From positions 74,479-138,478 of the forward strand of contig OY970314.1 of the NCBI GenBank assembly GCA_963716475.1: a DNA stretch of 64,000 bases. Direction: 5' to 3'. Source of the DNA: Candidatus Woesebacteria bacterium. GTDB lineage: Bacteria; Patescibacteriota; Microgenomatia; UBA8517. Every line of letters begins with the position of its first letter. Positions within the stretch are counted from its first letter, which is position 1. The notes under the pieces were generated by a model. That model did no database searches, was not told the DNA's origin, and saw nothing but the letters and a program-made list of their open reading frames with translations. A program made the translations under genes and the position numbers. This document shows, one piece after another, positions 15,351 through 43,117 of the stretch.

Positions 15351-15380
15351 TTGACAAACGTTCCCATGGTTGGTAACAAT
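15351..15380 (+). promoter_or_regulatory. Promoter of giant gene 1: TTGACA-N11-GGTTGGTAACAAT
   Basis: TTGACA at 15351-15356 and TGgTAACAA extended -10-like at 15371-15379. The same 13-mer at the same spacing recurs upstream of giant gene 2. Confidence 0.5.
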
Positions 15381-15394
15381 TAATTAGTAGCAAA

Positions 15395-18300
15395 ATGCCC
15401 ACAAAAGAAAAAATCTCCGCGGTAAAAAAAGTTTTGGAAGGAATTTCTGTCTCTTCTGTTGCATCTGAGGCCGGGGTTGCCAGAAAAACAATATATTCGT
15501 GGCTAAATATTTATAAAGCCGCTGCCAAAAGAAACAAAAAAACCTGTCTCTTGCCCAAATATGTGGCGGGAAGGGCTCACCCGAGGGAATATACGCACAC
15601 TTTGGAGCAGAAGACAGTAAGACTAATAAAGAAGGACCCGACACTTAGCGTTTCCAAAATGGCTGAAAGATTAAACGCAGGACATCATGCGGTTTACAAT
15701 CTTTTAAAGGCCTTAAAATTGAACACAGAAGATTCCAGGCTTGCATACTCCCGGATTTACTCATATCCCGGTATTTTTGACCCCCAAATTAAGGAATCGG
15801 TTGCAAGGAAAATTGTGAATTCGGAAGGAAAAGTCACGGATATTTCCAGGGAGCTACGGGTTTCCAGAAAGACTATATATAAATGGTTAAAAGAATACAA
15901 AGAGAAGGGAACAGTAAGAAATAACTATTTGAAAGGTTTTGAACACCCCAGATCACTTGGCCCGGAGGCGGAAGCGTCAGTGCTCTCGCAAGTCGTAAAG
16001 GCGCCGGAACTTTCAATTCATGCCTTGGCCACCGGTTTAAACTTTTCCAATCATGCGGTTTTTAATATTCTAAAAAGAAATTTCCTGACTCAAAGAAATG
16101 CCAGGATTATCTATTCTCAGGCTCAGGCTATCCGGGTTTCCGAAAAACCGGAAGCTATCGGTTTTATCGACAGGATAAAGAGTGTTTTTGAAACCTTTAC
16201 TCCGAATCTGGCCCCGGCTCCGCCTCCGGGGGGAAAATCCAAGTTTAGCCCTCTTCTTAAAATCTCCCTGGCTTCGATAATCGTTTTACCGCTTTTCACT
16301 CTTGCCCTGGTCTATTGGGTGAATCTATTAAGGTCCGGTGCAGCAGGGAACGTCGTCGGGCTTATCTTTGCCACAATATCCCTGATTATGGGTACTTTCT
16401 TCTTTTTATATTCACTCAAATATTATTTTACGGTCGCTTTGGTTCTTTCCCGCACCCAGCAGGAAGGGTCAAAAAGCCGTACTTCTATCGGTCTTGAACC
16501 CAATCTCGATCACGTAATTCTCACAAAGAAGCCATACATATCAGTTCATATACCTTTTTATAATGAGAAGAATGTAGTAGAGCGTGCAATTGAGGCTTCA
16601 ACCAATTTCGATTACCCGGAGTATGAAGTGATTCTTTGTGATGATTCAACCGATGAAACAACAACCATTATCAGGGATTATCAAAAGAAATATCTTTCAA
16701 AAGGGGAGAGCTTAAAAATAACTACCAATAGTCAAGACGGCTGGGAGCTGTCCCATGTGGATGTCAGACCGGGAGTAACCCTTAAACATCTTCACAGGAT
16801 CTCAAGAGAAGGTTACAAGGGGGGAGCACTCAGGCTAGCTCTTACTCAGACTGATCCCAGGGCTGAGTTTGTCTCTGTCTTTGATGCCGATTTTGTTCCA
16901 TATCCTGATTCTCTAAACCTTTTCCTCAAGTACTTTAAAGCTGAGAATAACATGAGTGAGGATTATACAGTAAGTAAGGTTGCTGCGGTTCAAGGTTACC
17001 AGTGGCATGTACTTAATAAATCCGAAAACTGGATAACCAGGGGTGTCAGAAGTGAATATGCAGGTAGCTACGTTATCGAAAGAGCGGGAACTGAAATCTA
17101 TGGGGGACTAAAACAAATCTCGGGGTCAGTATATATGATTAGACGTAAGCCCCTAGAAGAAGTAGGCTGGGCCACATCAATCACTGAGGACTTTGAACTT
17201 ACTCTCAAACTATATAATGCCGGCTACAAGGTGGTCTATACACCTTATATACAAGCTCCTGCAGAATGTGTATCAACCCTAAGACGCTTAGTGAGGCAAC
17301 GTATGCGTTGGGCCGAGGGTCATTCTTTCAATGTCAAAAAGATGTTTGCAAAGCTTATGTTCTCTCCGAAACTTTCTTCTGCCGAGAAGTTTGAAACGGT
17401 TTACCTTGCCCCTTACTACCTTCAGGCATTCTTTTTTGTAGTCGGAACTCTTTCCTGGTTTATCAGTGAGACTCTCCTGCCTGCCCGTCTGCCTTTCTGG
17501 ACAGAACTTTGGGGATGGAGTCTGGTCTTAACCAACATGGTAGCCCTTCCCCTTATGAACACCGTCGGAATGTTCCTGGAAGAAAGTGAACAGAAGGACT
17601 ATACAGGAATACTATCATTCGTCGCTCTTTCATACCTTGTGGTCCCGTTTCAGGCCTACGCGGCTGTCAAGGGCTTTCTGGAGACCTCAGAAGGGCCTTG
17701 GTTTAGAACTCCCAAGACCGGTAGAATCACAGACGTCTTTGCCAGGGGTAAATTCTACAGGCTTATCAGACAGATCCTTCCCAGAAGAGCCACCTCATTC
17801 CAAAGTACTTATTCATACAACTACATTACCTTAACGACAGCAAATAATAGATTTAGCAATTTTAAAATAAAAAGGTCGGGAAATAAATATATTTCAAAAG
17901 CATTACTTACGGGATTAACGATTATTATTTTACTTTTGAATCAACTTAGCTTCTTTGCCCCGGGAGTACTTGCGGCAAGTCCTAACCCTACTATTGAACA
18001 ACAAATAAATTTTATGGATAAATTATACTCTACAACCAGCACGAGTGCCGCACCGGGCGATAATTCTTTAGGAATGTTTACTTGGAATGACTCAAAATAT
18101 AATAACGCAACTGTTAATATGGACTATGATGCTGGGAAAAGCGGAAACTTGTCTTATGGCCTAACTTCTGTGGGACTTTCTTTGGTTAATGGAACAACAT
18201 ACACACCGGCAATAAGGTATCAATGTCTTGCAGTGAGTGGAATAGCAACCGAATACGCTATTCCAGGGTTATATACGTCAGGTGGAGTTTTAGTTCAATT

Positions 18301-19282
18301 CTCAGAAGTTTCAATTTCTCTCGGCGAGGTTCCGGGTGGGAAATGTCCTACTTCAGCGAACAGAACACCTGCATATATTGCTGCGGCACGCCTAAGAATT
18401 GTACAGACAAATGCTACCGGAATTACAAATACCAGAAACATGATTGAACTGGGAGATGGTGAAACCATTTCAACAGGTACAACAGCAACTCAGCTAACTT
18501 ACCCCAAATATTGGCTTTATACATCGGGAAATTATGACGGGACTGTTACTACGACTTTTGAAGCGACTGTTTGGAGGGCCGGTGGCAGTTCATACACCGC
18601 CTACGTATGTCTGTATTCTACAGCAGGCAGTGAGATCGGGTGTGTGAGTACCACAAGTACATCCCCGGCTTACCCGACCGCAGTAAGCGTAACCCTGTCA
18701 AACGGAACCGAATATGAAGTAAGAGTCAAAGCCAGCGCAGCCGCAAAAACTGTATATATTGCAAACGCTAAAGTTATAGTTGATCAAGCAGCGGCAGGGG
18801 GAATTACCAAATTGGAAACAGTGCAACATTATAATAACACTCTGGCAACGGAATCAACATCTTCCTATGTTTCTAAGCAATTTTTAACCGAGTTTGTTTT
18901 GGATAACTGGTATGGCGGAACGTTTGCTGCCTATTTTGAGTCGGATATAAAGACTAATAACAGTTCAAATGCCTATTATGCTCGTTTGTACGATATTTAT
19001 AATGCTACCCCTATGGGAGAGATTACAGGTAATGATACTTCCTATGTTAGAAAAACCAGTTCGGATATATGGAGTTCTCTTGCTGCGGGTGGCAATACAA
19101 TGATAGACGTTCAACTGAAAAATAATTCGACCAGCACCACCTCATCATCAAATTCTTGGTTAATCATTAAAGTAACAAATTTACAAGTGCCCGAGAAGCT
19201 TATTTTTGCCCTGCCGTTGATATCCTTAATCCCGATTATAATTAAAAAAAGGAAGGAGATTCTATTAAATAGAAATGGTTGA
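15395..19282 (+). CDS. Giant gene 1: tandem HTH - polytopic processive GT2 synthase - variable ectodomain - VPE-CTERM protein
   Basis: 1295 aa. Two HTH modules ('VASEAGVARKTIYSWLNIYK', 'ISRELRVSRKTIYKWLKEYKEKG'). GT2 motifs 'CDDSTDET', 'FDADFVPYPD', 'QGYQWH', 'SITEDFELT' and 'RQRMRWAEGH'. Multiple TM segments and a Ser/Thr/Asn-rich C-terminal ~400 aa, ending 'VPEKLIFALPLISLIPIIIKKRKE'. Confidence 0.85.
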   Translation: MPTKEKISAVKKVLEGISVSSVASEAGVARKTIYSWLNIYKAAAKRNKKTCLLPKYVAGRAHPREYTHTLEQKTVRLIKKDPTLSVSKMAERLNAGHHAVYNLLKALKLNTEDSRLAYSRIYSYPGIFDPQIKESVARKIVNSEGKVTDISRELRVSRKTIYKWLKEYKEKGTVRNNYLKGFEHPRSLGPEAEASVLSQVVKAPELSIHALATGLNFSNHAVFNILKRNFLTQRNARIIYSQAQAIRVSEKPEAIGFIDRIKSVFETFTPNLAPAPPPGGKSKFSPLLKISLASIIVLPLFTLALVYWVNLLRSGAAGNVVGLIFATISLIMGTFFFLYSLKYYFTVALVLSRTQQEGSKSRTSIGLEPNLDHVILTKKPYISVHIPFYNEKNVVERAIEASTNFDYPEYEVILCDDSTDETTTIIRDYQKKYLSKGESLKITTNSQDGWELSHVDVRPGVTLKHLHRISREGYKGGALRLALTQTDPRAEFVSVFDADFVPYPDSLNLFLKYFKAENNMSEDYTVSKVAAVQGYQWHVLNKSENWITRGVRSEYAGSYVIERAGTEIYGGLKQISGSVYMIRRKPLEEVGWATSITEDFELTLKLYNAGYKVVYTPYIQAPAECVSTLRRLVRQRMRWAEGHSFNVKKMFAKLMFSPKLSSAEKFETVYLAPYYLQAFFFVVGTLSWFISETLLPARLPFWTELWGWSLVLTNMVALPLMNTVGMFLEESEQKDYTGILSFVALSYLVVPFQAYAAVKGFLETSEGPWFRTPKTGRITDVFARGKFYRLIRQILPRRATSFQSTYSYNYITLTTANNRFSNFKIKRSGNKYISKALLTGLTIIILLLNQLSFFAPGVLAASPNPTIEQQINFMDKLYSTTSTSAAPGDNSLGMFTWNDSKYNNATVNMDYDAGKSGNLSYGLTSVGLSLVNGTTYTPAIRYQCLAVSGIATEYAIPGLYTSGGVLVQFSEVSISLGEVPGGKCPTSANRTPAYIAAARLRIVQTNATGITNTRNMIELGDGETISTGTTATQLTYPKYWLYTSGNYDGTVTTTFEATVWRAGGSSYTAYVCLYSTAGSEIGCVSTTSTSPAYPTAVSVTLSNGTEYEVRVKASAAAKTVYIANAKVIVDQAAAGGITKLETVQHYNNTLATESTSSYVSKQFLTEFVLDNWYGGTFAAYFESDIKTNNSSNAYYARLYDIYNATPMGEITGNDTSYVRKTSSDIWSSLAAGGNTMIDVQLKNNSTSTTSSSNSWLIIKVTNLQVPEKLIFALPLISLIPIIIKKRKEILLNRNG
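19187..19279 (+). other. C-terminal tripartite sorting-signal-like region (VPEK / Pro-rich hydrophobic / KKRK)
   Basis: 'VPEKLIFALPLISLIPIIIKKRKEILLNRNG' at the extreme C-terminus of giant gene 1. The layout matches PEP-CTERM / archaeosortase signals. Confidence 0.65.
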
Positions 19283-19838
19283 AAAAAGGAAAATTATAAA
19301 TATTTTGCTTATAGCCAGCCTAATTTTGGCTTTACTGCCTTTTTATGTGAGCTTTCAGGATTTACTTACAAATATAGTTATGAAGGTAAATTTGTATAAA
19401 GCTTTACAAAACACAATTGTGCCATATGAAATGAAAGTGGTAGGCGGAATTATAAACCTGTTACGTTTTCCGATTAGCGCAGGCAGTAGTTATTTTTCAT
19501 GGAATATAGCCAATGGTAAAAAAGAAGCAGTCTATTTGGCCTGGAACTGTATTGGTTGGCAGACTATGATACTGTTTTTGGTGACATTAGTTACAGGTTT
19601 TTCAAAAAGACACCTCTTAAGTTCAAAAATTGAAGCTATTTTAATAGGAGCGCTAGGGACATATATAATAAACATTGTAAGGATTACTGTTGTTATTTTG
19701 ATCTATTTCTGGTTTGGCCGGGGGTTTGGAATAATATTCCACGATTACTTCTCATCTCTAATTACAATATTCTGGTTAATAGGGTATTGGCTGTTTGTTT
19801 ATAAACATACCCTAATAGAAAAATCCGTCGAAGAGTAG
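19275..19838 (+). CDS. Miniature exosortase/archaeosortase-like polytopic protein (cassette 1)
   Basis: 187 aa with about 5 hydrophobic segments. Motifs 'AWNCIGWQT', 'INIVRITV' and 'IFHDYFS' are conserved in the paralogues at 33555 and 41283. The ATG overlaps the giant-gene stop by 8 nt. Confidence 0.62.
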   Translation: MVEKRKIINILLIASLILALLPFYVSFQDLLTNIVMKVNLYKALQNTIVPYEMKVVGGIINLLRFPISAGSSYFSWNIANGKKEAVYLAWNCIGWQTMILFLVTLVTGFSKRHLLSSKIEAILIGALGTYIINIVRITVVILIYFWFGRGFGIIFHDYFSSLITIFWLIGYWLFVYKHTLIEKSVEE

Positions 19839-20290
19839 CGGAACAGGTTGTTTTGGTAAAAATATTCTTCCACAATACACAAGACATGGATGTATTGATT
19901 AACCTAATTGGTTGTCGTTTTCTGGTGGCTTTCGTATAGATATATTTTGGAAGATAAGGAAAGCACGGGAAAGGATATAGTTGAGGTTTGAGCATATATT
20001 TTACTCCATCATATATGCCGTATAGATGGGATTTACTGTCAATCCACTGGTTAAAGTGAACACCAAACCAAGGGAAATTTCTTCATCAATATAGGTTGTA
20101 TTATTTAACGAAACCGGCTGACATTTGACCCAAATCCGGAAGAATAATCTCTAACCAATCATCGTTTTTAAATGATTCTTTTGAGGCCGGATCAACAGCT
20201 TTCTGACTATCTGTGGGTTGAGAATTCGATGGGAATGACTTTTCTGAGCCAGCATAAAGACCTGGCCATGCACACCCAGGAAGTACAAAG

Positions 20291-20325
20291 ACCGATAGTA
20301 TATAATCTCCGCACCGATAGTATAT
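20291..20325. repeat. Tandem direct 13-mer ACCGATAGTATAT x2 (22-bp period)
   Basis: Exact copies at 20291-20303 and 20313-20325 in the ORF-poor spacer upstream of giant gene 2. Confidence 0.9.
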
Positions 20326-20437
20326 TTGAGGCCAATTGTATCTTCATTTCGTGCCTGTTTCGACTTTTTTGTCTATGTCCAGCCTGGCCGTGAGGCCGAA
20401 TTTATCCACCGCCATTTTATGAGCCTGTAGTTAGTAC

Positions 20438-20467
20438 TTGACAGGTGTTAGGATGGTTGGTAACAAT
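20438..20467 (+). promoter_or_regulatory. Promoter of giant gene 2: TTGACA-N11-GGTTGGTAACAAT
   Basis: TTGACA at 20438-20443 and the 13-mer at 20455-20467, identical in sequence and spacing to gene 1. The -10-like hexamer ends 7 nt before ATG 20474, which suggests a leaderless mRNA. Confidence 0.5.
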
Positions 20468-20473
20468 GAATAT

Positions 20474-23400
20474 ATGCCCTTTTCCGAAGCTAAAAGAGAA
20501 AAGATCGTTTTATCCGTACTAAAGGATAATATTGCGGTTTCGGAAGTCTCCAGAAACTACTCTGTTGCCCGAAAAACTATTTACTCTTGGATAAAGAGGT
20601 ATAAAAAGGGAAGTCTTGCTCCACTATATACAAAGGGCAGGAAACACCCGGCGGCCGTATACCCGAAAGCCTATTCTTATATAAGTAGATGGGCTGTAGG
20701 GCACCCCAAGTGGGGATGCCGCACTTTGAGTAAAAGATTAAATGAAAAAGGAATCAGCTTGAGCTACGTTCAGGTTAACAGATTGTTGAACACAATCGGA
20801 GCGGAGACTTATGACAGAAGGTTGAATTATGCCAGAAACTTTGCCGGTCCGGGGAGAACCAGGGAGGATGTCAGGCTTGAAATTGTCAAAAAGGCCGTTA
20901 CCGGGAAAATTTCCATTACAACTCTTTCCGAAAACTACAAAGTTGCCCGTAAGACCATATATAAATGGATAGCGAAATACCGGGCCATTGGTAACATTAA
21001 AGATTCGTACGTCGTTGGTGAGGCTCATCCCAAGGCAATCTACCCGAAAATTACGCAGCAAGTACTCGACTTGGTCGTTACAAACCCCGGTTATTCGGTA
21101 CGCACTCTGGCTAAATCATTTCCGGCATCCTCTTGGACCATCTGGAGTATTTTAAATAGAAATAATCTGAATACATATAATTTAAGGCTCGAATATTCCA
21201 GGAATATATCTGAGGCTGCCGAAGAGAAAGTCTCGACAACGGGAGTTTCCGAAAGGATAAGATCTGTTTTTGAAAGCTTTACTCCAAATCTGGCTCCGGC
21301 CCCGCCTCCGGGGAAACGTAAAATCTTCAACTTCTTCATTATTTCAGTCTTCCTCTTATCAATATCCTTAGCAATTTTCTATTGGGGATCCGTAATTGTT
21401 CACGCTCCGAATATTGCCGGGTCCATAGGCATGATTTTTGCAGGCGTCTCACTGTCACTCGGAATGTTTTTCTTCCTTTATTCTCTTAAATACTATATTT
21501 CTACAGCGATAGTGCTTTCATATTCACAGAAAGAGGGCTTAGATGCCTCGAGAGTAAGCGCTACCGGCTTAAACTCAGACCTCAGTAACATTCATCTTGA
21601 ACGGCATCCTTATGTCTCGGTTCATCTGGCTCTCTATAACGAGAAGAATGTGGTGGAAAGACTGATGAAAGCAGCTACTTCTTTCGATTACGACAATTAT
21701 GAAGTAATCATCGCGGATGACTCAACTGATGAAACCACCGACAAAATCAGGGAGTTTCTGAAAACATTCCTTCCTAAAGGTGAATCGCTTCGGCAAACCA
21801 AAGGGGACGGGTGGGCAATGACAGAAGTTGACATAAGGAGCGGGGTTGTCTTTAAACATGTCCATAGAACCACAAGGATGGGTTATAAAGGGGGAGCGCT
21901 GAAGCTTGCCCTTTCTCTTACCGACCCGAAAGCTGAATTTGTTTCTGTCTTTGATGCCGATTTTGTGCCTTACCCAGATTCCCTGATGCTATTTCTTAAA
22001 TACTTCAAACTACAGAATAATGGATCAGAAGACTACAAAACAAGTAATACTGCATCAGTTCAGGGCTATCAGTGGCACGTACTTAATAAATCAGAAAACT
22101 GGATTACTAGGGGAGTCAGAAGTGAGTATGCAGGTAGCTACGTAATAGAAAGAGCCGGAACCGAAATCTACAAAGGCCTAAAGCAAATCTCGGGATCAGT
22201 TTACATGATCAGGCGCGATGTTTTGGAAGGAATAGGTTGGGGTACTTCTATCACTGAGGACTTTGAGCTTACCCTGAAACTCTACGAAAAAGGCTACAAA
22301 GTGGTTTATACGCCGTATATTCAGGCTCCGGCTGAATGCGTATCGACCCTAAGAAGACTTGTCAGACAACGTATGCGTTGGGCGGAAGGACATTCTTTCA
22401 ATGTCAAAAAGATGTTCGCAAAGCTTATGTTCTCTCCAAAACTTTCTTCCGCCGAGAAGTTTGAAACGGTTTATCTTGCCCCTTACTATCTACAGGCATT
22501 ATTCTTCCTCATCGGAACTCTCTCCTGGTTCATTTCGGAAACCATTTTACCCGCCCGCCTTCCTTTCTGGACAGAGCTTTGGGGATGGAGTTTGGTTCTG
22601 ACCAATATGATTTCACTGCCGCTTCTAAACACAGTCGGACTTTTCTTAGAGGAATCGGACAGAAAGGATTACTCGGGTATTCCATCTTTTATAGCTCTTT
22701 CATATATAGTTGTTCCGTTTCAGGCCTATGCGGCTGTAAAAGGCTTTCTGGAGAAGGAGGAAGGACCATGGTTTAGAACTCCGAAAACCGGCCGCATTAC
22801 GGATGTTTTCAAAAGAGGTAAGTTCTACAAATTTATTTCCGGGATCTTGCCGGGGAAGGCTGCCGGTTCTGCCACGAGTTATGATCTAAGTCCTTATCTT
22901 GCCCTGACCTCAGCCAATAATAGATTCAGCTCGTTCTCCATTCAAACAAGAAAAGGCAGAAGGTGGGTGGGAAAACTAATGCTAACCTCAATGCTTATTA
23001 TTTCCAATCTTCTTCTTTCTTTTTCTCCTTATATTGAATCAAGGGACGGCAACAGCCAACCTCCTCCGGGAACAGGTATTCTTATGGATGGCAGTACAAA
23101 AGGATCGGGAGGCAAGGTCAATTTAACTCCTGAGCAGCAGCAGTCTTTGGACAAATCGATTAAAGCGAATAACCAAAAAACAAGCTTTAAACTGGTTAGC
23201 GATGTCTCGGCAGCAGAAATATCCGGAGGCAGTGAGGTGAACACCTCCTTTGATGTTAAAAAGAAAGACCTTGAACTTAGCGGGGGAAATACCACCTTTA
23301 CAACTGATGAAAATCCCCAATTTACCTTAAAGCAGAACGACGGTTTTTGGGAATTTATCAAGAATATTTTCATTAAAGAAAAACCCTTGAAAGATCAGGT

Positions 23401-31612: not shown

Positions 31613-31624
31613 TACAATGACATA

Positions 31625-33550: not shown

Positions 33551-33554
33551 GAAA

Positions 33555-34127
33555 ATGAATCAAAAAGCGCTTTTTAAACAAATACTGGCAACCCTTGTAA
33601 TTATATTGGCAGTTTTACCTGTGATTGTGACTTTTTCGGCAGTTTTGACTTCATTTTTCGAAAAAATTAAGCTTTATGTGTGGCTTCAGGATCTGGCTGT
33701 TCCTTTTGAAAGCAGACTGGTTGCGGTTCTAATCCAACTCTTTGGAATCAAAGGAATTATAACCCCCGGCAGCAGTTTTGCCATGGTTTTGCGGACATCC
33801 TCGGGGACTTTTACCCCGGTTGCATTGGAATGGAACTGTTTGGGCTGGCAAAGCCTGATTCTATTGGGTCTTACCCTAATAACAGGCCTCAGGGGAGCTT
33901 ACACGGGTTTAAGTAAAGCCCAGGTTGTTCTTTTCGGAATACTCGGAACTTTTTTATCAAATCTATTCAGGATGGCTTTTATTGTCATTCTGGCTTTTTA
34001 TTGGAATTCATTTGCAGCTATGATTATCCATGATTATTTTGCCAGTTTTGTCGCTATCATCTGGATGTTATTTTTCTGGTGGTTCTCCTACAGGTATATT
34101 TTGGAGGAAAAACCTGCGGGAAACTAA
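33555..34127 (+). CDS. Miniature exosortase/archaeosortase-like polytopic protein (cassette 2)
   Basis: 190 aa with 'EWNCLGWQS', 'SNLFRMAF', 'IIHDYFA' and the tail 'FWWFSYRYILEEK' shared with cassette 3. It starts 4 nt after the upstream stop. Confidence 0.62.
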   Translation: MNQKALFKQILATLVIILAVLPVIVTFSAVLTSFFEKIKLYVWLQDLAVPFESRLVAVLIQLFGIKGIITPGSSFAMVLRTSSGTFTPVALEWNCLGWQSLILLGLTLITGLRGAYTGLSKAQVVLFGILGTFLSNLFRMAFIVILAFYWNSFAAMIIHDYFASFVAIIWMLFFWWFSYRYILEEKPAGN

Positions 34128-34435
34128 ACCAATTTTTGCAATTTGAAATCGGGGAAGAGACGCTTTTTAATCAGGATGTCGCTTTCCTCGCCTATTTTAA
34201 TCGCTTCCAGTAAATTCTTCACCCCAGCCAAATTGATGCCCTTATTTTGCGTTAGGTAGCGTACAAATTGGAGTTTATTGATATCCTCAATGGAGAATAG
34301 TCTTCTTTTGGACTCGGATCGGTAGGGAGTAATGAGCCCGAGACTTTCGTAAAGCATAATTGTCCGTGGATGAACTTTCAAAAGTCTCGCAGCTATGGAT
34401 ATAGGCAGAATTGGACTCTCACTAAGCTCAGTCAT
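34124..34435 (-). CDS. MerR-family transcriptional regulator
   Basis: 103 aa. 'LPISIAARLLKVHPRTIMLYESLGLITPYRSESKRRLFSIEDINKLQFV' is a MerR/HspR-type HTH plus wing. It is divergent from giant gene 3. Confidence 0.75.
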   Translation of the reverse strand: MTELSESPILPISIAARLLKVHPRTIMLYESLGLITPYRSESKRRLFSIEDINKLQFVRYLTQNKGINLAGVKNLLEAIKIGEESDILIKKRLFPDFKLQKLV

Positions 34436-34926
34436 ATTAATATGATAATAATTAAGTATATTAACCTGAAGATAATACTGTCAAGAGGAAAAAGAAATAA
34501 AATCTATTGTCGATTTTTTATTATAGCCAATACGTTCGATAATTTGATAGGATTAGGGTTCTAATAAAGTATTTACTCAATCGTGAAAAGCTATCAAAGA
34601 AAATAGCAACAACCCTTATAGAACATAATAATACCTATATATATGTATCCTGATCAATATTTTTCAATAATTACCATAAACATATAGGAGAATAACAGAT
34701 GCCGGACGGGCAGAAAGGTTAACATTTGAGGCTGATTTCGGAGTAATAAAATGACTCATATAGCCAGTTCTCTTATAACCAATCGTTATATTTCGAGATA
34801 TTAGTTTAGAAATATCTATATCCTCTAGTAACATAGCTATATTTGAATTGGAAAATATGAGATTTAAACCGTTATTATCAACAGTATTTTAACCCATAGC
34901 CTCTTAAATGAGGATACTATTGACCA

Positions 34927-35006
34927 TTGACAGATGTTACCCACAAGGTGTTAACATAATATATTAGCATCGTTTTCACGGGATTTAGAAACTAATGTGT
35001 TAACAC
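34927..35006 (+). promoter_or_regulatory. Putative promoter/operator region of giant gene 3 (TTGACA ... TGTTAACAT ... GTGTTAACAC)
   Basis: TTGACA at 34927-34932, TGtTAACAT extended -10-like at 34949-34957, and a 10-bp perfect palindrome GTGTTAACAC at 34997-35006, 6 nt before ATG 35013. Confidence 0.4.
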
Positions 35007-35012
35007 CCTGCC

Positions 35013-38000
35013 ATGACACCTAAGTTATCAAAAGAGGGCCGTTTAAAGCTCATTGAACGCGTTGAAAAAGGCGAATCTGTCGCCAAGCTTTGCGCTGAAG
35101 CAGGAATTTCCCGGGTTCTTTTCTATAGATGGTATAAAAAGTATAAAAAGGGAGGTTTAATTGGCCTTAAACCTGGAGAAGCAGGCAGGCCGCAAACGTT
35201 TCACGCGCCTGAAAAGGGCAGGGTATACACAATTCTTTCACCAAAGGCCAGGAGTTTGATGGTCAAGGAAGTAGTAGAGCAGAATCAGGACGCAACAGAA
35301 GTCGCCGGACGCTATAACGTAAGCCGCGTCACACTATATAAATGGATAGACAGATATAAGGCTGATTTGGCAAAAGGTGTGGAACCGGATATGACCTCAA
35401 GAAAACCGTATGTGGAAAGGTATTTCAGGCAGGTTCCGGAGAAACACGAGCAGGCGGTTTTACAAATAGTAGAACAGCACCCTGAATGGGGTATTAGGAA
35501 AATTGTAGCCAATTTGCCGCAAGTTGCCGGAATCCCCATTATTGGACACCACGGTGTCCAAAACATACTTAACAGGCATAATCTGTCTACTTATGAGGTG
35601 CGCCTTGCCTACGCCAGATCCCGTGTTACTCCTATTACCCAGGGTATTGGTGGGGTACTGGAAAAAGTTACGGAGTTTTTCCAAATTGCTCCCGAAAAAA
35701 GGAAATCCTTTATCAAAAACTTCACCCGCATAAGTTTTGGGCTTTTTTCGCTGGTTGTAGTTCTCGGAGTTGTCAGTTACATTGCACGTTCCTTCTCGCA
35801 GGAGGCAGGAGCTTCACCACTGGGCTTAGGGTTTGCTTTTATAGCCCTTCTAATGGGCACAATATTCCTGTTCTATTCGTTTAAATACTATTTCAGCATT
35901 GCCATGGTGCTTTCATTTTCCCAGAATGAAAGTGGAAGTATTAGAAAGAGGGGGATTGGACTTACTCCAGACCTTTCGCATATAAAGCTTCTGAAAAGAC
36001 CGTATGTTTCGGTGCACATACCTTTTTATAACGAAAAGTATGTAGTTGAGCGTGCCATGGAGGCAGCATCGGGTTTTGATTATCCGGAGTATGAAGTGAT
36101 TCTTTGTGATGATTCTACTGATGAAACAACCAAAATAATCAGTAATTACCTGCATGCTAATGGAAAGAGCATTCAGAAGAAATCTGGAAACGGTTGGGAG
36201 CTTCAATGGACCGAAATAAAACCCGGAGTTACTTTTAAGCATCTTCACAGAACCAGCCGTGGCGGTTACAAAGGAGGAGCATTAAACCTGGCACTAAAAC
36301 TTACCGATCCCAGAACAGAATATGTATCAATTTTTGATGCGGACTTCGTGCCTTACCCGGATACATTGGAACTGTTCCTTAAGTATTTTCAGGTTGAAGG
36401 CAATAGGCCGGAAATCGCCGCGGTTCAGGGATATCAGTGGCACGTACTCAATAAATCCGAAAACTGGATTACCAGGGGAGTCAGAAGCGAATATGCGGGT
36501 TCCTATGTCATAGAAAGGGCAGGAACTGAGATCTACGGTGGTTTAAAGCAGATCTCCGGTTCGGTTTATATGATTAAGAAAGATGTCTTGCAGCAAATCG
36601 ACTGGGGGACTTCTATTACCGAGGATTTTGAACTAACCCTTCGGCTCTACGCTCAGGGCTACAAAGTTCTTTACACTCCCTATATACAGGCTCCGGCGGA
36701 GTGTGTTTCCACAATTAGGCGCTTGGTGCGTCAAAGAATGCGCTGGGCTGAGGGACACTCTGCCAATGTCAGAAAGATGTTCTTGAGGCTTATGAGAAGT
36801 CCCAAGCTTAATGCTACAGAAAAATTTGAATTTGTATATCTTTCACCCTACTACCTCCAGGCATTTTTCTTTTTGGTTGGGACTGTTTGCTGGTTTCTTT
36901 CTGAGGCCGTTTTTAAGGCAAGACTTCCTTTTTGGACTGAGCTTTGGGGTTGGAGTTTGGTATTAACCAACATGATTTCTCTCCCGCTTTTAAACGCGGT
37001 TGGAATGTTTCTCGAGGAAAGTGGGGAAAGGGATTACCTGGGCTTGGCATCATTTGCGGCTTTAAGCTATATCCTGGTGCCTTTCCAGGCATACGCTTCC
37101 GTTAAAGGATTTTTGGAGGATAAAGAAGGCCCCTGGTTTAGAACCCCAAAGACAGGCAGGATCACAGATATATTCAAAAGAGGTAAGTTTTACAGGTTTA
37201 TTTCCGGAATTTTGCCGGGGAAAGCCTCCGAGCCGGCTTCCGCTACCGGAAAACTTCTGCCGGGAGAAGCCCATGACATTGAGGCCAATTATTATTTGAA
37301 CTTAAACTCTGCCAATAATACCTTCAGCAACTTTAAAATTAAATCCAAAAAGGCTTATTGGATTGGGAATGCCGTAATCGGTATTACTGTTGCACTCAGC
37401 GGCTTACTTGTTTATTCCGGTTCGTTGATAAGCAAAGGAACTCTAATGGATTTACCGATTTCAACACGTGTTATTTCCGAAAGCCGTCCCAAGACGTTTC
37501 TTTCCAGACTGGAAATGTTTAAAGTCAAGGAGGTAATGGCCAATACCCTGCCACTACGAAAATCACTTCTGGCTCACGGAGAAAAAACATTGCCCCAACT
37601 CCTGGGAATATGGCCGATATTTATTTTTGCGCTTTTTGTCGCCCTACTTATTATCCTATTTATTAAGAGACGAAGTTTATTCAAGAAGGTGGTTTCGGTT
37701 GGTTTAATTATCTCGCTTGTCGCAAGTTGGCTTTTGTCCGGCTGGCCGGCCATTTGGAATTACCCGAGAATCCCGCCAAAGATCCGGGAAGCAAAGGCTG
37801 CGTTTGACGAGAGAACGGAAACAAACGTACAAGGAGCAAGCCTGAGTAGTCCTTATCAGGCCACTCTTGCTGTTCCTACCGGTACAACTAACGGAGACAT
37901 AATGTTCACTTGGATCGGTTCATATAGTGCTACCGTAACGACCAATGCTGCCTGGACTTTGATTGGAAGCAATACTACTAACAGTGATAAATATTACCTG

Positions 38001-41000
38001 TATGCTCGGGTAGCCTCAAGCGAACCGGCGTCATATGTCTGGACATTTTCAGGGACTTCAACATATAAAGCTACTTGTACCACCTATATAGCCAGTAGTG
38101 ATTTTAGTGTGACTAATGTTTCTACTGATCTTACCGTCAGCAATACTCCTTATAGAACATCTAATGGGACAAATCGTGCGGCGTCTTTTAGTGTTCCCAA
38201 TGCGAATTCGCCGTTATTGTTTTTCGGAGGCGTGTATTCTACAAGTTCCAAGACTCAGACTCCTCCTACAAACCCGGGAACATTCGCTGAAGATTATGAC
38301 ACGGGAAGCACCACTCCGGACTTTTGGTTGGAAATTGCTTCATATATTTGGGCCGGCTCCGGAACTAGCGGAGATATAGATTCCACGATTTCTGCTACTT
38401 TGACTACCAAACACGCTTTTGCTGTGGCATTGAAACCGCCGGCTGCTACAGTAAGCACAGGTGGCGGCCAAAAAGCTGGAATGGCCATTTCCAGCACTGA
38501 CAATTATGTCGGAGGGGAATTTATTATAGAGGAAGGTAGTGGGGGATCACGTAATGTAACAGGTATTACCATTGCCGAACAGGGGACAGTGAATGCCCAG
38601 ACGAACTTGGATAATATTAAACTTTATTATAATTCGGATACGAGTGCCCCCTATGATTGTGCCAGCAAAGCCTATACAGACGGAGACCTGAACCAATTCG
38701 GTTCCACTGACACAGATGGCTTCAGTGCGGCAAACGGTACCTCTGCTTTTACCGGTTCAGTGGGTATCAGCACCACTTCAACGATGTGTGTTTATGTGGT
38801 TTTGGATATCGGTTCGGGTGCCGGGAATGGAGATACATTAGAAATCCAGATTACCAATCCTTCAACTGATGTAACAGTCAGCAGCGGTTCGGTTAAACCA
38901 ATTACTGCCGTGCTTATCTCCGGAATTACTACAATTATGAATCCGGGCGTGATAGGCACTTTAGGAAAGTCCGCGGACGGTTGGGGTGGCGTCATTCCTG
39001 TTTATATGGAATTGGTCGGTGTAGATCAGGCAAGCTATCCCTATGCCAGGGCACAGGTTGTTACCCCAGCCTCAGAAACGTATTACACCACGATGACTTG
39101 GGATAGCGGGGATAACCGCTACGAGGGAGCGATTTATATCGGTTCCTGGTATTGTAATGCGTGTGCTGATAATCATACCGGAAGCTTTGCAGTGACGGTA
39201 CAGCTGGATAATAACTCCGGTTTTCCTTCAATAGATTACTCGGATAGCGTCGGCAATTTTGCTACAACGGTTACCCGCAGGCGAAGCTCCATCGGAGGAA
39301 CGACCAACTATGCAAAATATGCTGCGGTTTGGAGTACCGACCATTGGAATGTTCAGGCTTATGATTTTGATCTTTATACGGATTCGGGAACTATTACAAA
39401 TGCCGTTATCGGTATGGCTTTTCACCCCACGACGGCGGACATTTCCATTACCCAGGTCAGATTAAGTGATGGAGCGTGGATAACTACTCAATCTGCCGTC
39501 GACGGCACCGGTAACGGCTGGTGGTGGGACAGTTCGACCCATTCTCTGTATGTAAGAGTAGCTTCTCTGACGACCACTGCCCAAAATCTTGATTTTGAAT
39601 TTACTTCTTCGACTGACCTTTGGGCAACGCGTTTTGACAATGTCCAGACTACAGATATGGGGGAGCGTGACTTTTGGAACGGACTCTATATAAATAACCG
39701 TTATTACACAACCAGTATCTATGGATCTTCGCTTAACGTAGCCTTTAGCGGTACTGATCATGATAATGACGGAGTTCAGGCGGAATCAAGATCTCACAGG
39801 GATGGAACTTTAGAGAACGTAACAACCGACTGTATGGAAAGACTAGCGGTACACGTAGGACCTGACGGAGGAGGTACCCCAAGTGTGGCGAGACAGGATA
39901 ACAGCGTTGATTATAGCTACGATGTTAAATGGAAAGCGAACGATTTTGCAAATTGGATACAAAGTGAAAACGATGACCAAATGGTACTCTATGAAACCTC
40001 CGACGATCAGGGAAGTTGTACCGGTGGCAACATTCAGGCTTGGGCTCAATACTGCGATAATCAGATCGCAGCTCAAAGAACTCAAACTTTTTATGCAGGG
40101 AAACCCTACCTTAAAAACTATTATAAATTTATAAACAATGATACTAGTAGTCATTATTATGATATGGTTTGGGGAAGGGAGCAGTGGCTTAATGATTCTG
40201 CCGCTTCCACCAATGACCGGGGGATGACCTATGACAGCAATCCGAAGACAGTTGAGTGGTCCGGAGTTGACGATGAAAATCCGGATCAACCAACTTCTGC
40301 TCACCCATGGTTTGCCGCTTATGATATTACAGGTACCAACTTAATGGACGGAGTTTGTTATAAGTCCAACGATATTGCGACTAATAATTATTTTCTGTCA
40401 TACGCACCCCTTCAATCAGGATCCACCGCAGCCGAATGGCCGATTGATCATGGCCAGACAGGTACAGATGCTGCCGATACTTTCTTCAATAAATCTTTTG
40501 GTGTCGTTGGCGCAGGAAGTTCTGTAAACTTTACTTTTTGGCAGTTTAACTATTACGGAAGCTCTTTTGCCGATCTTAAATCAACAATTGATACAAATTG
40601 CACGGCGTTAAACGCACCCACATATAACCAATCCGCCTTCCGTTGGTTTAGTAATGATAATTCGGTATCAGTAGGTTCCCCAATAGTAAGTCAGGATACG
40701 GCGATGAGTAGTGAAACACCGCCTCAGGGGACACCTTTCCGTATGCGTGTCCTTCTACATGTGGATGGTAGCGATTTGGCCTCAAGCGGTCAGAATTTCA
40801 AGCTCCAGATTGCCTCGAAAGTAGGAGCGTCTTGTGATACTGATATGGATACAACCGACGAGTCGTACTCCGATCTGGTGACTACAACCGGAGCTATCCG
40901 TTATTATGACAACACTTCAGCCACGGATAATACAGCACTGACCGCGGATGTGACAAATGACCCCAGCCATAGTGGTCATACTAAAGTAACTCAAACCTAC

Positions 41001-41273
41001 AAAGATTTGGATACGAGCGATAGCAATATTAATTTCACTAATTCGGAAGGGGCGATACCTGTCGGTCAGGACGGAGAATGGGATTTTACCATCGTTGACA
41101 ATTCGGCCACGGAGGGAACGGATTATTGTCTTAGAATTGTTAAAGCTGACGATACAGTACTTGATACCTATTCCGTGGTGCCTGAATTTACTACGGTTCC
41201 GGAAAACCCGCTTCTCCTTTTTGGTCTGTATCCCCTATTTGCGGGATTTTTGAAAAAGCTGAGAAGGAAATAA
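35013..41273 (+). CDS. Giant gene 3: HTH modules - processive GT2 synthase - extra TM segments - ~1100-aa ectodomain - VPE-CTERM protein
   Basis: 2086 aa. HTHs 'VAKLCAEAGISRVLFYRWYKKYKKGG' and 'VAGRYNVSRVTLYKWIDRYK'. GT2 motifs 'CDDSTDET', 'FDADFVPYPD', 'QGYQWH', 'SITEDFELT' and 'RQRMRWAEGH'. It ends 'VVPEFTTVPENPLLLFGLYPLFAGFLKKLRRK'. Confidence 0.85.
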   Translation: MTPKLSKEGRLKLIERVEKGESVAKLCAEAGISRVLFYRWYKKYKKGGLIGLKPGEAGRPQTFHAPEKGRVYTILSPKARSLMVKEVVEQNQDATEVAGRYNVSRVTLYKWIDRYKADLAKGVEPDMTSRKPYVERYFRQVPEKHEQAVLQIVEQHPEWGIRKIVANLPQVAGIPIIGHHGVQNILNRHNLSTYEVRLAYARSRVTPITQGIGGVLEKVTEFFQIAPEKRKSFIKNFTRISFGLFSLVVVLGVVSYIARSFSQEAGASPLGLGFAFIALLMGTIFLFYSFKYYFSIAMVLSFSQNESGSIRKRGIGLTPDLSHIKLLKRPYVSVHIPFYNEKYVVERAMEAASGFDYPEYEVILCDDSTDETTKIISNYLHANGKSIQKKSGNGWELQWTEIKPGVTFKHLHRTSRGGYKGGALNLALKLTDPRTEYVSIFDADFVPYPDTLELFLKYFQVEGNRPEIAAVQGYQWHVLNKSENWITRGVRSEYAGSYVIERAGTEIYGGLKQISGSVYMIKKDVLQQIDWGTSITEDFELTLRLYAQGYKVLYTPYIQAPAECVSTIRRLVRQRMRWAEGHSANVRKMFLRLMRSPKLNATEKFEFVYLSPYYLQAFFFLVGTVCWFLSEAVFKARLPFWTELWGWSLVLTNMISLPLLNAVGMFLEESGERDYLGLASFAALSYILVPFQAYASVKGFLEDKEGPWFRTPKTGRITDIFKRGKFYRFISGILPGKASEPASATGKLLPGEAHDIEANYYLNLNSANNTFSNFKIKSKKAYWIGNAVIGITVALSGLLVYSGSLISKGTLMDLPISTRVISESRPKTFLSRLEMFKVKEVMANTLPLRKSLLAHGEKTLPQLLGIWPIFIFALFVALLIILFIKRRSLFKKVVSVGLIISLVASWLLSGWPAIWNYPRIPPKIREAKAAFDERTETNVQGASLSSPYQATLAVPTGTTNGDIMFTWIGSYSATVTTNAAWTLIGSNTTNSDKYYLYARVASSEPASYVWTFSGTSTYKATCTTYIASSDFSVTNVSTDLTVSNTPYRTSNGTNRAASFSVPNANSPLLFFGGVYSTSSKTQTPPTNPGTFAEDYDTGSTTPDFWLEIASYIWAGSGTSGDIDSTISATLTTKHAFAVALKPPAATVSTGGGQKAGMAISSTDNYVGGEFIIEEGSGGSRNVTGITIAEQGTVNAQTNLDNIKLYYNSDTSAPYDCASKAYTDGDLNQFGSTDTDGFSAANGTSAFTGSVGISTTSTMCVYVVLDIGSGAGNGDTLEIQITNPSTDVTVSSGSVKPITAVLISGITTIMNPGVIGTLGKSADGWGGVIPVYMELVGVDQASYPYARAQVVTPASETYYTTMTWDSGDNRYEGAIYIGSWYCNACADNHTGSFAVTVQLDNNSGFPSIDYSDSVGNFATTVTRRRSSIGGTTNYAKYAAVWSTDHWNVQAYDFDLYTDSGTITNAVIGMAFHPTTADISITQVRLSDGAWITTQSAVDGTGNGWWWDSSTHSLYVRVASLTTTAQNLDFEFTSSTDLWATRFDNVQTTDMGERDFWNGLYINNRYYTTSIYGSSLNVAFSGTDHDNDGVQAESRSHRDGTLENVTTDCMERLAVHVGPDGGGTPSVARQDNSVDYSYDVKWKANDFANWIQSENDDQMVLYETSDDQGSCTGGNIQAWAQYCDNQIAAQRTQTFYAGKPYLKNYYKFINNDTSSHYYDMVWGREQWLNDSAASTNDRGMTYDSNPKTVEWSGVDDENPDQPTSAHPWFAAYDITGTNLMDGVCYKSNDIATNNYFLSYAPLQSGSTAAEWPIDHGQTGTDAADTFFNKSFGVVGAGSSVNFTFWQFNYYGSSFADLKSTIDTNCTALNAPTYNQSAFRWFSNDNSVSVGSPIVSQDTAMSSETPPQGTPFRMRVLLHVDGSDLASSGQNFKLQIASKVGASCDTDMDTTDESYSDLVTTTGAIRYYDNTSATDNTALTADVTNDPSHSGHTKVTQTYKDLDTSDSNINFTNSEGAIPVGQDGEWDFTIVDNSATEGTDYCLRIVKADDTVLDTYSVVPEFTTVPENPLLLFGLYPLFAGFLKKLRRK
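41178..41270 (+). other. C-terminal sorting-signal-like region with tandem VPEF and VPEN motifs / hydrophobic / KKLRRK
   Basis: 'VPEFTTVPENPLLLFGLYPLFAGFLKKLRRK' at the extreme C-terminus of giant gene 3. Confidence 0.65.
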
Positions 41274-41282
41274 TCGTGAACC

Positions 41283-41888
41283 ATGCCTAAAAACACATTC
41301 AAGACAATTTTGGTTGTATTTTCAATTATCATAATGCTTTTACCCATTTTTGCGGCTCTGAATGGCTTTTTGACGGGGGTTTTAGATAACGCCGGCTGGT
41401 ATAGACCTGTCCAGCAGTTTATTGTTCCCTGGCAGGCGAGGATAGTAGCCGGGGTAATCCGCCCTTTCGGAATTAACTCCAAAGTAACTCCGGGAAGTTC
41501 GCTGTCAACTTTCTATATGATTAAAAAGGAAACTGCCATCCCTGTCGATTTGTCCTGGAACTGTTTGGGGTGGCAATCTATCTTGTTGCTAATAGTATCC
41601 CTGATAACAGGGTTAAGAGGGCCATTTACTCATCTTTCAAGGATAAAGTGCGTCCTGTTCGGTTTGGTGGGTACTCTGCTTATCAATATCTTAAGAATGA
41701 GTGTTATTGCCCTGGGAATCTATTATATTAATGCCCTGGCTGCACAAATTATTCATGATTACTTGGCAGCCTTTTTTACAATAATTTGGCTATTTATCTT
41801 CTGGTGGTTTTCATATAGATACATCCTGGAAGAAAAGGAAAGCCATGATACGGGGAATGATAATATGGAAGTTACACCGAAGGGTTGA
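41283..41888 (+). CDS. Miniature exosortase/archaeosortase-like polytopic protein (cassette 3)
   Basis: 201 aa with 'SWNCLGWQS', 'INILRMSV', 'IIHDYLA' and 'FWWFSYRYILEEK'. It starts 9 nt after the giant gene 3 stop. Confidence 0.62.
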   Translation: MPKNTFKTILVVFSIIIMLLPIFAALNGFLTGVLDNAGWYRPVQQFIVPWQARIVAGVIRPFGINSKVTPGSSLSTFYMIKKETAIPVDLSWNCLGWQSILLLIVSLITGLRGPFTHLSRIKCVLFGLVGTLLINILRMSVIALGIYYINALAAQIIHDYLAAFFTIIWLFIFWWFSYRYILEEKESHDTGNDNMEVTPKG

Positions 41889-42988: not shown

Positions 42989-43117
42989 GACAGGTAGATT
43001 ATCAGAAATAGTATACTAGAAAAAGATTTAGGTACAATGGGACAAAAAAGAATCCATTGTGCGAAAACCCATTGACGTATATTGGGGTGTTTGGGTACAC
43101 TTGGGGCTGAATTAAAA

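Follow-up and report, generated by a model that had tools for sequence, protein, structure and literature searches.

The stretch of DNA analysed here, referred to as the window, comprises 64,000 nucleotides (nt) of contig OY970314.1 (assembly GCA_963716475.1) from a Candidatus Woesebacteria bacterium, and it holds, between positions 15,351 and 41,888, three paralogous gene cassettes (Table 1). Each cassette contains a giant gene (G1, G2, G3), whose product joins a double helix-turn-helix (HTH) head, a membrane-bound family 2 glycosyltransferase (GT2) synthase, an ectodomain and a short C-terminal tail, and a small gene (S1, S2, S3) for a protein of the exosortase type, here called a mini-exosortase. 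The six open reading frames (ORFs) were found, in the ORF list and its translations, exactly where an original prediction had placed them; that prediction, made from the letters alone, had read the cassettes as dedicated pairs of a sortase and its substrate. We show below that the fusion of HTH head, synthase, ectodomain and tail, with an adjacent mini-exosortase, is real and is widespread in Microgenomates.

Table 1. Genes, domains and promoter-like elements of the three cassettes. Positions are nt of the window, or residues (aa) of the protein where so marked.
Feature	Position	Strand	Remarks
Promoter-like element, cassette 1	15351-15379	+	TTGACA, 17-nt spacer with TTCCCATGG box, TAACAAT
G1	15395-19282	+	1295 aa
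G1, HTH head	aa 1-250	+	
G1, transmembrane (TM) pair	aa 284-355	+	
G1, GT2	aa 378-645	+	
G1, TM bundle, gating loop and last TM	aa 662-854	+	
G1, ectodomain	aa 855-1264	+	
G1, VPEK tail	aa 1265-1295	+	nt 19187-19279
S1, mini-exosortase	19275-19838	+	187 aa; Cys92, Arg136, His156
Promoter-like element, cassette 2	20438-20466	+	pattern search
G2	20474-31612	+	3712 aa counted from ATG
G2, chassis	aa 1-850	+	
G2, ectodomain	aa 851-3682	+	nt 23024-31519
G2, VPEY tail	aa 3683-3712	+	nt 31520-31609
TMEM260-like/PMT_2 GT-C glycosyltransferase with C-terminal TPR	31625-33550	+	641 aa; between G2 and S2
S2, mini-exosortase	33555-34127	+	190 aa
MerR-family regulator	34124-34435	-	103 aa; PF13411 3.7e-14; convergent with S2, divergent from G3
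Promoter-like element, cassette 3	34927-34956	+	TTGACA, 19-nt spacer with GTTACCCAC box, TAACAT; second GTTAACA at 34999-35005
G3	35013-41273	+	2086 aa
G3, chassis	aa 1-802	+	
G3, extra TM pair	aa 866-911	+	
G3, ectodomain	aa 912-2061	+	nt 37746-41195
G3, VPEN tail	aa 2062-2086	+	nt 41196-41270
S3, mini-exosortase	41283-41888	+	201 aa

The start of S1 overlaps the end of G1 by 8 nt (ATGGTTGA), S3 follows G3 after a gap of 9 nt and S2 is preceded by a gap of 4 nt. These distances, from which translational coupling had been proposed, are exact, but the partner of S2 in this respect is the glycosyltransferase gene that lies between it and G2, and not G2 itself. The paralogues are 53–58% identical over the whole chassis that the giant proteins share and 69–73% identical in the GT2 core (77–80% at the DNA level), whereas S1–S3 are merely 31–48% identical to one another.

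That chassis, ~850 residues long, consists of two paired-type HTH modules, two TM helices, a GT2 domain like that of BcsA and hyaluronan synthases, and a TM bundle. In the AlphaFold2 (AF2) model of G1 residues 1–882, which has a predicted local distance difference test score (pLDDT) of 79.7, there are folded HTH modules (~90 pLDDT), two long TM helices, a GT-A domain and a C-terminal helical bundle. The top Foldseek match of this model is E. coli BcsA (5.5e-15), with further matches to Rhodobacter BcsA, hyaluronan synthases (1.3e-11), PcManGT, plant CesA and chitin synthases. At the sequence level, phmmer matched G1 to BcsA at 2.5e-14 and aligned the DxD, TED and QxxRW motifs, pairing FDADF, ITED and QRMRWA of the chassis with FDCDH, TED and QRIRWA of the E. 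coli enzyme. The chassis therefore combines, as processive membrane GT2 synthases do, a GT-A fold bearing the D, DxD, TED and Q-x-x-R-W motifs with flanking TM helices. DDSTD, FDADF, ITED and QRMRW are invariant across 66 family sequences, and since all GT2 catalytic motifs are so conserved, synthesis appears to be under selection; the BcsA-like synthase of the chassis is, to judge from its motifs, predicted to be catalytically intact. A conserved WFRTPKTG of the chassis resembles the FxVTxK gating-loop motif of cellulose synthases. The specific synthase equivalogs of NCBIfam were not reached (PgaC 87 against 422, CelA 85 against 699, NodC 31 against 550), and the model for XrtG-associated GT2 proteins scored 24 bits against a cut-off of 364. 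The chassis motifs quoted in the original prediction recur in the translations with small corrections: G2 reads IADDSTDET instead of CDDSTDET, and the SANN motif is present but takes the form TANNRFSNF in G1 and SANNRFSSF in G2.

Two HTH modules in each protein exceed Pfam thresholds, with matches that include HTH_23 (e.g. 52 bits against a threshold of 24.6), HTH_28, HTH_32 and HTH_Tnp_1, and from these domain matches we infer that the head is a cytoplasmic, putatively DNA-binding module. The heads also match the N-terminal HTH domains of the IS481, IS630 and IS3 transposases, which raises the question of whether the cassettes are transposase-derived mobile elements. The matches, however, extend over the first ~120 of 284–369 model positions and stay below the transposase cut-offs (IS481, for example, 57–89 bits against 224), so that the heads contain no DDE domain. 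Moreover, the paralogues are old, because every GT2 core of the window has a homologue in another genome that resembles it no less than its paralogues in the window do. The related suspicion of a gene-calling or assembly artefact meets the fact that the uninterrupted fusion is common to more than 100 independent homologues from many assemblies, and we regard an origin as mobile cassette or as artefact as effectively refuted.

Downstream of the chassis the three proteins become mutually unalignable, and the length of this part ranges from 0.4 to 2.8 thousand residues. Lysine and arginine (K/R) counts under the positive-inside rule orient the last chassis TM in-to-out (five K/R before, none or one after), a topology that the extra TM pair of G3 leaves unchanged, and the tail helix out-to-in (none or one before, five or six after), so the ectodomain should lie outside the cell with the VPE motif at the outer face of the membrane. 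Each of the three tails has, after its VPE-x motif, ~17 hydrophobic residues and then a basic cluster (KKRK, KKKR and KKLRRK, respectively); the tripartite ending that had been noticed on all three proteins was thus confirmed in the translations. A short motif abutting a TM helix and followed by a basic cluster is the C-terminal architecture typical of exosortase substrates. When all ORFs of at least 60 aa were searched for the combination of [VILTAY]PE-x, a hydrophobic stretch and three or more K/R, no other ORF of the window had such a tail.

The ectodomain of G2 includes a Laminin_G_3 domain, a LamG-type lectin domain (aa 2488–2647, nt 27935–28414; Pfam 2.2e-21), and a segment (aa ~1562–1695, nt ~25157–25558) similar to a phage tail-fibre/collar protein (PDB 6ov6, 8.7e-10). 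The latter segment is made up of His/Thr-rich ‘HTHT’ repeats, and by eye the same ectodomain also shows two ~450-aa internal repeats with Asp-box-like S-x-D-G-x-x-W motifs. For the ectodomains of G1 and G3, searches of the PDB and Pfam found no relatives.

The small proteins S1, S2 and S3 score 38.3, 32.2 and 31.6 bits, respectively, against the TIGR04178 exosortase/archaeosortase signature of NCBIfam (cut-off 23), covering positions 3–91 of 97, and all 54 S family members match this model, so the family resemblance originally suspected for the small proteins holds. So do their conserved Cys, Arg and His blocks: W-N-C, N-x-x-R and H-D-Y are invariant in S1–S3, and an alignment of the 54 sequences shows no substitution at W90, N91, C92, N133 or R136, with at least 90% conservation of H156. 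The catalytic triad proposed by Haft for the exosortase family (10.1101/2023.06.07.544157) is made up of Cys, Arg and His. The AF2 model of S1 is helical, with a pLDDT of 82.5. Foldseek comparison of this model with the PDB returned noise (best E-value 0.67), and a profile search of the PDB returned nothing; to our knowledge, no exosortase structure has been solved. Hydropathy and charge across the family (a mean of 2.9 K/R at the N-terminus; helix 41–62 amphipathic, with a mean Kyte–Doolittle value of 0.61) favour four TM helices, N- and C-termini on the inside, and Cys92, Arg136 and His156 towards the outer leaflet, a predicted arrangement that hinges on helix 41–62 being amphipathic and not membrane-spanning. 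On that condition, rough hydropathy and positive-inside counts place the VPE motif and the Cys of S on the same, outer side of the membrane, in keeping with the proposed pairing of enzyme and signal.

The cassettes have many relatives. With G1 residues 1–882 as query, hundreds of proteins of 900–1500 aa with the same HTH-plus-GT2 architecture were recovered; all named matches are labelled Patescibacteria, Woesebacteria and Daviesbacteria among them, and the homologues are annotated merely as ‘glycosyltransferase’ or ‘cellulose synthase-like/transposase’. When one genome per GTDB species was scanned, 309 stretches were confirmed, of which we fetched 72 loci (given below as L numbers), mostly from Woese-, Chisholm-, Curtiss-, Davies- and Gottesmanbacteria. 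In all 15 homologues that were inspected the C-terminus consists of [V/I/T/Y]PE-x, hydrophobic residues, often including conserved Pro residues, and a basic cluster. Of 48 complete family ORFs, the scripted screen picked out a tail in 40 and inspection by eye added five, while the remaining three (L041, L054, L071) are truncated or split, with the tail on downstream fragments in L054 and L071. The tail is thus kept by the orthologues, as the sorting-signal interpretation had anticipated. Outside the family the screen flagged seven of the 458 other ORFs of at least 150 aa in these loci; four are run-offs at contig starts and three are downstream halves of split G genes (L037, L054, L071), so that, fragments excluded, no unrelated ORF among the 458 has a tail.

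A hidden Markov model (HMM) of S detected a mini-exosortase in 43 of the 72 loci, and 49 of the 50 hits lie on the strand of the G gene. A same-strand S gene is found downstream of 35 of the 48 complete G genes, directly adjacent in 22 cases (within 150 nt, often overlapping) and 0.26–5.7 kb away in 13; three further G genes end at a contig edge. As is typical of exosortases, the enzyme therefore co-occurs with a tripartite C-terminal signal. Related genomes commonly carry two or three G paralogues in tandem (L004, L005, L007, L010, L020, L025, L047, L059, L063, L065), so the three-cassette layout of the window is typical rather than exceptional; the arrays of L059, L063 and L065 have no exosortase gene within ~10 kb.

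S and tail also co-vary. Among 31 G–S pairs, the more identical two S proteins are, the more similar are their tails (Mantel r=0.45) and the 60 residues before the PE motif (r=0.51), values not reached in 2000 permutations, whereas GT2-core identity does not follow the tail (r=0.04) and S follows the core weakly (r=0.28). Since S tracks the tail and the GT2 core does not, the end of the ectodomain, the tail and S appear to form a single module, which would be exchanged or co-evolve without regard to the conserved chassis. In cassette 3, the closest relative of S3 and that of the GT2 core belong to one and the same pair in L004.

Further evidence comes from gene fusions. A profile search of 1.84 billion representatives gave 469 clusters, and the proteins P0316 (946 aa) and P0358 (1227 aa) carry the GT2 chassis, an ectodomain, an ‘IEVPEN’ tail and the exosortase domain in a single polypeptide. 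In P0285 (458 aa) an exosortase is followed by a TM, an ectodomain and an ‘IIVPET...KRKK’ tail with no GT2, so the tail is not absolutely restricted to GT2 fusions. Fusions of enzyme and substrate are classical evidence of a functional link, and the cis fusions found here are possible self-processing proteins. The locus L073 (3331–6171) was grouped with the single-polypeptide fusions. Five other S-first proteins of 428–474 aa (P0299, P0300, P0309, P0333, P0351) may be built like P0285, and in P0259 the exosortase is fused to an S-adenosylmethionine (SAM) methyltransferase.

We consider it likely that each cassette encodes a membrane-bound processive GT2 synthase with an extracellular ectodomain, the tail of which is processed by the small exosortase encoded downstream. 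Several observations weigh against this interpretation. First, when the C-termini were compared with PEP-CTERM-type models, as had been proposed, no named CTERM model of NCBIfam matched the tails at E<=10, although HMMER filters may hide very weak matches. Second, the Pfam model PF09721 (Exosortase_EpsH, threshold 25.7) was not reached by S1 (13.5 bits) or S3 (10.5 bits) and did not match S2, while it is passed by some S family members and by the fusion protein P0316 (35 bits). Third, S1–S3 fall below the cut-off of every named exosortase subfamily in NCBIfam (tried: XrtG TIGR03110, ArtC TIGR03762, XrtX, XrtS, XrtH, ArtH, paceosortase and CrtC, each matched by at most 26 of the 54 S members). 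The bit scores, which were checked for S1–S3, reach at best 31.2 against 100 for ArtC, 16.2 against 102.75 for XrtG and 16 against 170 for XrtX, the XrtG model giving 13 bits for S1, 16 for S3 and no match for S2, and paceosortase scoring lower still; the exosortase clade of S and the [V/I]PE-x signal are both unnamed, and NCBIfam has no specific model for either partner. Fourth, 10 of the 48 complete G genes have no S downstream despite at least 1.5 kb of following sequence, and no S lies within ~10 kb in eight of the loci that hold complete G genes. An adjacent or nearby small partner is hence usual among orthologues and not general, and because L004 in addition has three G genes and one S, the pairing is frequent without being strictly one-to-one, contrary to what was first proposed. 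Fifth, the correlation of S with the tail could arise in part from physical linkage during module exchange and not from specificity. Finally, the TM bundle still anchors the protein once the tail is removed, which leaves the benefit of processing puzzling.

Some of these points would suit a C-terminal helix that is never cleaved and serves as a permanent, BcsB-like anchor, as in the fused AcsAB, with the exosortase homologue acting elsewhere or as a non-catalytic partner. The topology of synthase, ectodomain and C-terminal TM is indeed that of BcsA–BcsB, and ten complete G genes lack a nearby S. Against such an anchor, the family retains a [V/I]PE motif directly before the helix although the remainder of the ectodomain cannot be aligned, similarity among S proteins follows that among tails, cis fusions exist, and the catalytic Cys, Arg and His are conserved; we therefore hold a purely structural helix to be very improbable.

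If the tail is processed, as we favour, the steps might be as follows. From the last in-to-out TM of the synthase the polypeptide runs on into a large, fast-evolving extracellular domain, built in part of lectin-like and tail-fibre-like modules. The small exosortase would recognize the [V/I]PE-x signal in the outer leaflet and cut at or near the motif, so removing the C-terminal helix and basic cluster, and the new C-terminus would be handed to a lipid or glycan acceptor by analogy with ArtA and XrtA. The presumed product is a surface glycoprotein still tethered by its own synthase bundle. Processing might then provide a lipid or glycan tether, precede a second cleavage that frees the ectodomain, or remove a helix used in assembly.

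The second of these purposes amounts to a different view of the whole protein, in which the chassis is mainly an export and assembly platform for a precursor, and a second cleavage after the last chassis TM releases the ectodomain, which is then held solely by its modified C-terminus like an S-layer-like coat or adhesin. Such a scheme explains what is gained by exchanging a C-terminal anchor; ArtA substrates are S-layer glycoproteins, the ectodomains are hypervariable with lectin-like and tail-fibre-like modules, and P0285-type proteins have ectodomain and tail with no GT2. Yet no conserved protease site was noticed after the last chassis TM, where no dedicated search was made, and the synthase fusion is kept in hundreds of proteins, which implies that the link is functional and not a matter of delivery alone. 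We think release of the ectodomain unlikely.

A bolder extension of tail processing, to which we give a similarly low probability, is that the mini-exosortase is a transpeptidase that joins the C-terminus of the ectodomain to the nascent glycan of its own synthase or to a lipid primer, with the HTH head reporting the state of the surface module to the promoter. Were this so, the cell would possess a self-made protein–glycan tether, the acceptor of an exosortase would be revealed, and there would be a physical reason for the presence of exosortases in exopolysaccharide (EPS) loci.

The G genes also share a promoter-like element (Table 1). The window has three matches to the pattern TTGACA-N15-19-KTAACA, one a short way upstream of each G gene, against an expectation of 0.12, and none of 100 shuffles reached three. 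In the window and the 72 loci together, 45 of 59 hits lie at G starts (0.7 expected), and most of the remaining hits likewise precede G-like N-termini. The element is kept upstream of homologues elsewhere, for example at L001 4160–4187, L010 9963–9990 and L043 9961–9988. Because its spacer carries a conserved (G)T[AT]CCCA[TC] box, we regard the spacer as a candidate operator, which the HTH heads or the neighbouring MerR protein may bind. In cassette 2 the -10-like TAACAAT ends 7 nt before the ATG at 20474, a distance that favours this ATG as the start of G2 and would leave little or no leader; the TTG at 20438 is an artefact of extending the G2 ORF into the promoter. The letters ATGGTTGGTAACAAT upstream of G1 and G2 were considered as a ‘MVGNN’ leader or alternative start and rejected: a stop codon follows them in G1, and the idea was dropped because ATGGTTGGTAACAAT is the spacer and -10 part of the conserved promoter.

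Homologues of the MerR gene occur in 15 related loci, on the opposite strand and mostly ~0.6–1.4 kb upstream of G (e.g. L021 8767–9072, L050 8869–9174, L032 8892–9200, L007 14016–14321). Promoters controlled by MerR-type proteins are expected to have spacers of 19–20 nt; those beside the MerR genes here measure 16–19 nt and follow no clear rule. In the window the MerR gene overlaps the 3′ end of S2 by 4 nt.

Head and promoter together invite the thought that the giant proteins are primarily membrane-tethered regulators, one-component sensors in the manner of ToxR or CadC, in which the ectodomain senses contact with a host or surface, the HTH head regulates transcription, including that of its own promoter, and GT2 and exosortase modulate signalling. 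The two HTH modules pass Pfam and are confidently folded, the promoter with its conserved spacer box is specific to the family, and the strict promoter motif was found at 41 of 60 HTH-positive but 3 of 14 HTH-negative G genes (p=0.002), an association that is confounded by phylogeny and by imprecise HTH calling. However, all GT2 catalytic motifs are invariant, the promoter box could be bound by the MerR regulator instead, and relatives without the head retain the tail. While the G family may also be a membrane-tethered DNA-binding device, regulation as its chief role seems to us distinctly unlikely, and we retain the reading of a synthase whose tail is processed.

How new is such a system? Dedicated one-to-one exosortase systems are an already recognized class, and the closest known one is XrtG/Firmicu-CTERM of Firmicutes, in which exosortase G, a single target and two XrtG-associated glycosyltransferases are all encoded by separate genes. 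Both systems have a miniature exosortase (the XrtG model spans 187 positions), a dedicated pair of neighbouring enzyme and target, and GT2 genes in the locus; XrtG ranks among the top two named models for the S family (26 of 54 members, best E-value 2.9e-07). The host is a monoderm, as in XrtG systems. The difference is that target and glycosyltransferases, separate there, are here one polypeptide with an HTH head, and that the G–S system has its own promoter, an unnamed [V/I]PE-x signal and an unnamed exosortase clade.

With PEP-CTERM/XrtA (EpsH) the cassettes share the tripartite signal with a P-E core abutting the TM helix, an exosortase-family enzyme with conserved Cys, Arg and His, and a genomic tie to polysaccharide synthesis. 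XrtA, in contrast, has many signal-peptide substrates in diderm bacteria, whereas in this monoderm member of the candidate phyla radiation (CPR) there is essentially one polytopic substrate per enzyme, which lacks a signal peptide and is the synthase itself; S1–S3 also fall below the EpsH model of Pfam. Archaeosortase A/PGF-CTERM, known from the Haloferax volcanii S-layer glycoprotein, belongs to the same enzyme superfamily and removes the C-terminal helix of a large glycosylated surface protein to which a lipid is attached, a likeness that we propose for G; among named models ArtC comes second for S1, with 31 bits, and its cut-off of 100 is far above the S scores. In the archaeosortase A system, however, the motif is PGF and not [V/I]PE-x, the enzyme is much larger, and the substrate is a secreted protein and not a synthase. 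BcsA–BcsB (fused as AcsAB in Komagataeibacter), hyaluronan synthase and PgaC resemble the chassis in GT2 fold, in the D, DxD, TED and QxxRW motifs and in a motif like the FxTxK of the gating loop, and BcsA–BcsB also in the succession of synthase, extracytoplasmic domain and C-terminal TM helix, but the chassis has no PilZ domain, a hypervariable ectodomain takes the place of the conserved BcsB, the C-terminal helix carries a sorting motif, and there is a double HTH head at the N-terminus.

Our literature search found no paper that links exosortase, archaeosortase or PEP-CTERM with CPR or Patescibacteria. The initial impression that no system of this architecture had been described therefore stands for the fusion itself, and has to be tempered in that XrtG combines the same parts as separate genes: because it joins a mini-exosortase, a single target and GT2 genes, the architecture has relatives and is a variant of known systems.

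Exosortases have been linked to EPS loci by gene neighbourhood alone, and their acceptor is still unknown. Here a glycan synthase is the predicted substrate of a dedicated and very small exosortase, and some relatives carry the three parts on a single polypeptide. This provides a minimal system of two genes, or even of one, in which cleavage, acceptor chemistry and specificity could be tested heterologously. The G family is widespread (309 stretches), is often arranged in tandem and has hypervariable ectodomains with lectin-like and tail-fibre-like modules. In uncultured Microgenomates episymbionts these traits make it a strong candidate for the principal variable apparatus of the surface or of attachment, and it should interest specialists in protein sorting and in CPR cell surfaces.

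The genes inserted between G and S bear on the fate of the ectodomain. The GT-C gene of the window matches PF11028 (4.1e-26) and PF13231 (2.3e-09), and TMEM260-like GT-C proteins with tetratricopeptide repeats (TPR) directly follow giant G genes, with ectodomains of >2800 aa, in the window, in L006 (9512–11785) and in L072 (19474–21633). Elsewhere the position between G and S is occupied by polytopic spermidine-synthase-like proteins with TPR (L039 13295–16201, L043 14701–17286) or by YfhO (L026 16233–18407). That envelope enzymes sit between G and S suggests that they glycosylate or otherwise modify the ectodomain at the outer face, and the GT-C enzymes would probably be the ones to glycosylate its Ser/Thr-rich stretches.

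The flanks of the cassettes encode a polyprenyl synthase and an undecaprenyl-diphosphate synthase upstream (10637–12841), and a 243-aa GT2, an NAD-dependent epimerase/dehydratase-family protein and a GT4 downstream (43082–47379); the cassettes thus sit in an envelope-glycan island. Three large ORFs, at 13846–15228, 43814–45154 and 47385–48995, gave no Pfam hits. Only two of the 32 successive 2-kb segments of the window (1–64000) lack a positive GC skew (cumulative 3.2), and the long ORFs are nearly all on the plus strand, which together suggest that the window lies within a single replichore with a strong gene-strand bias.

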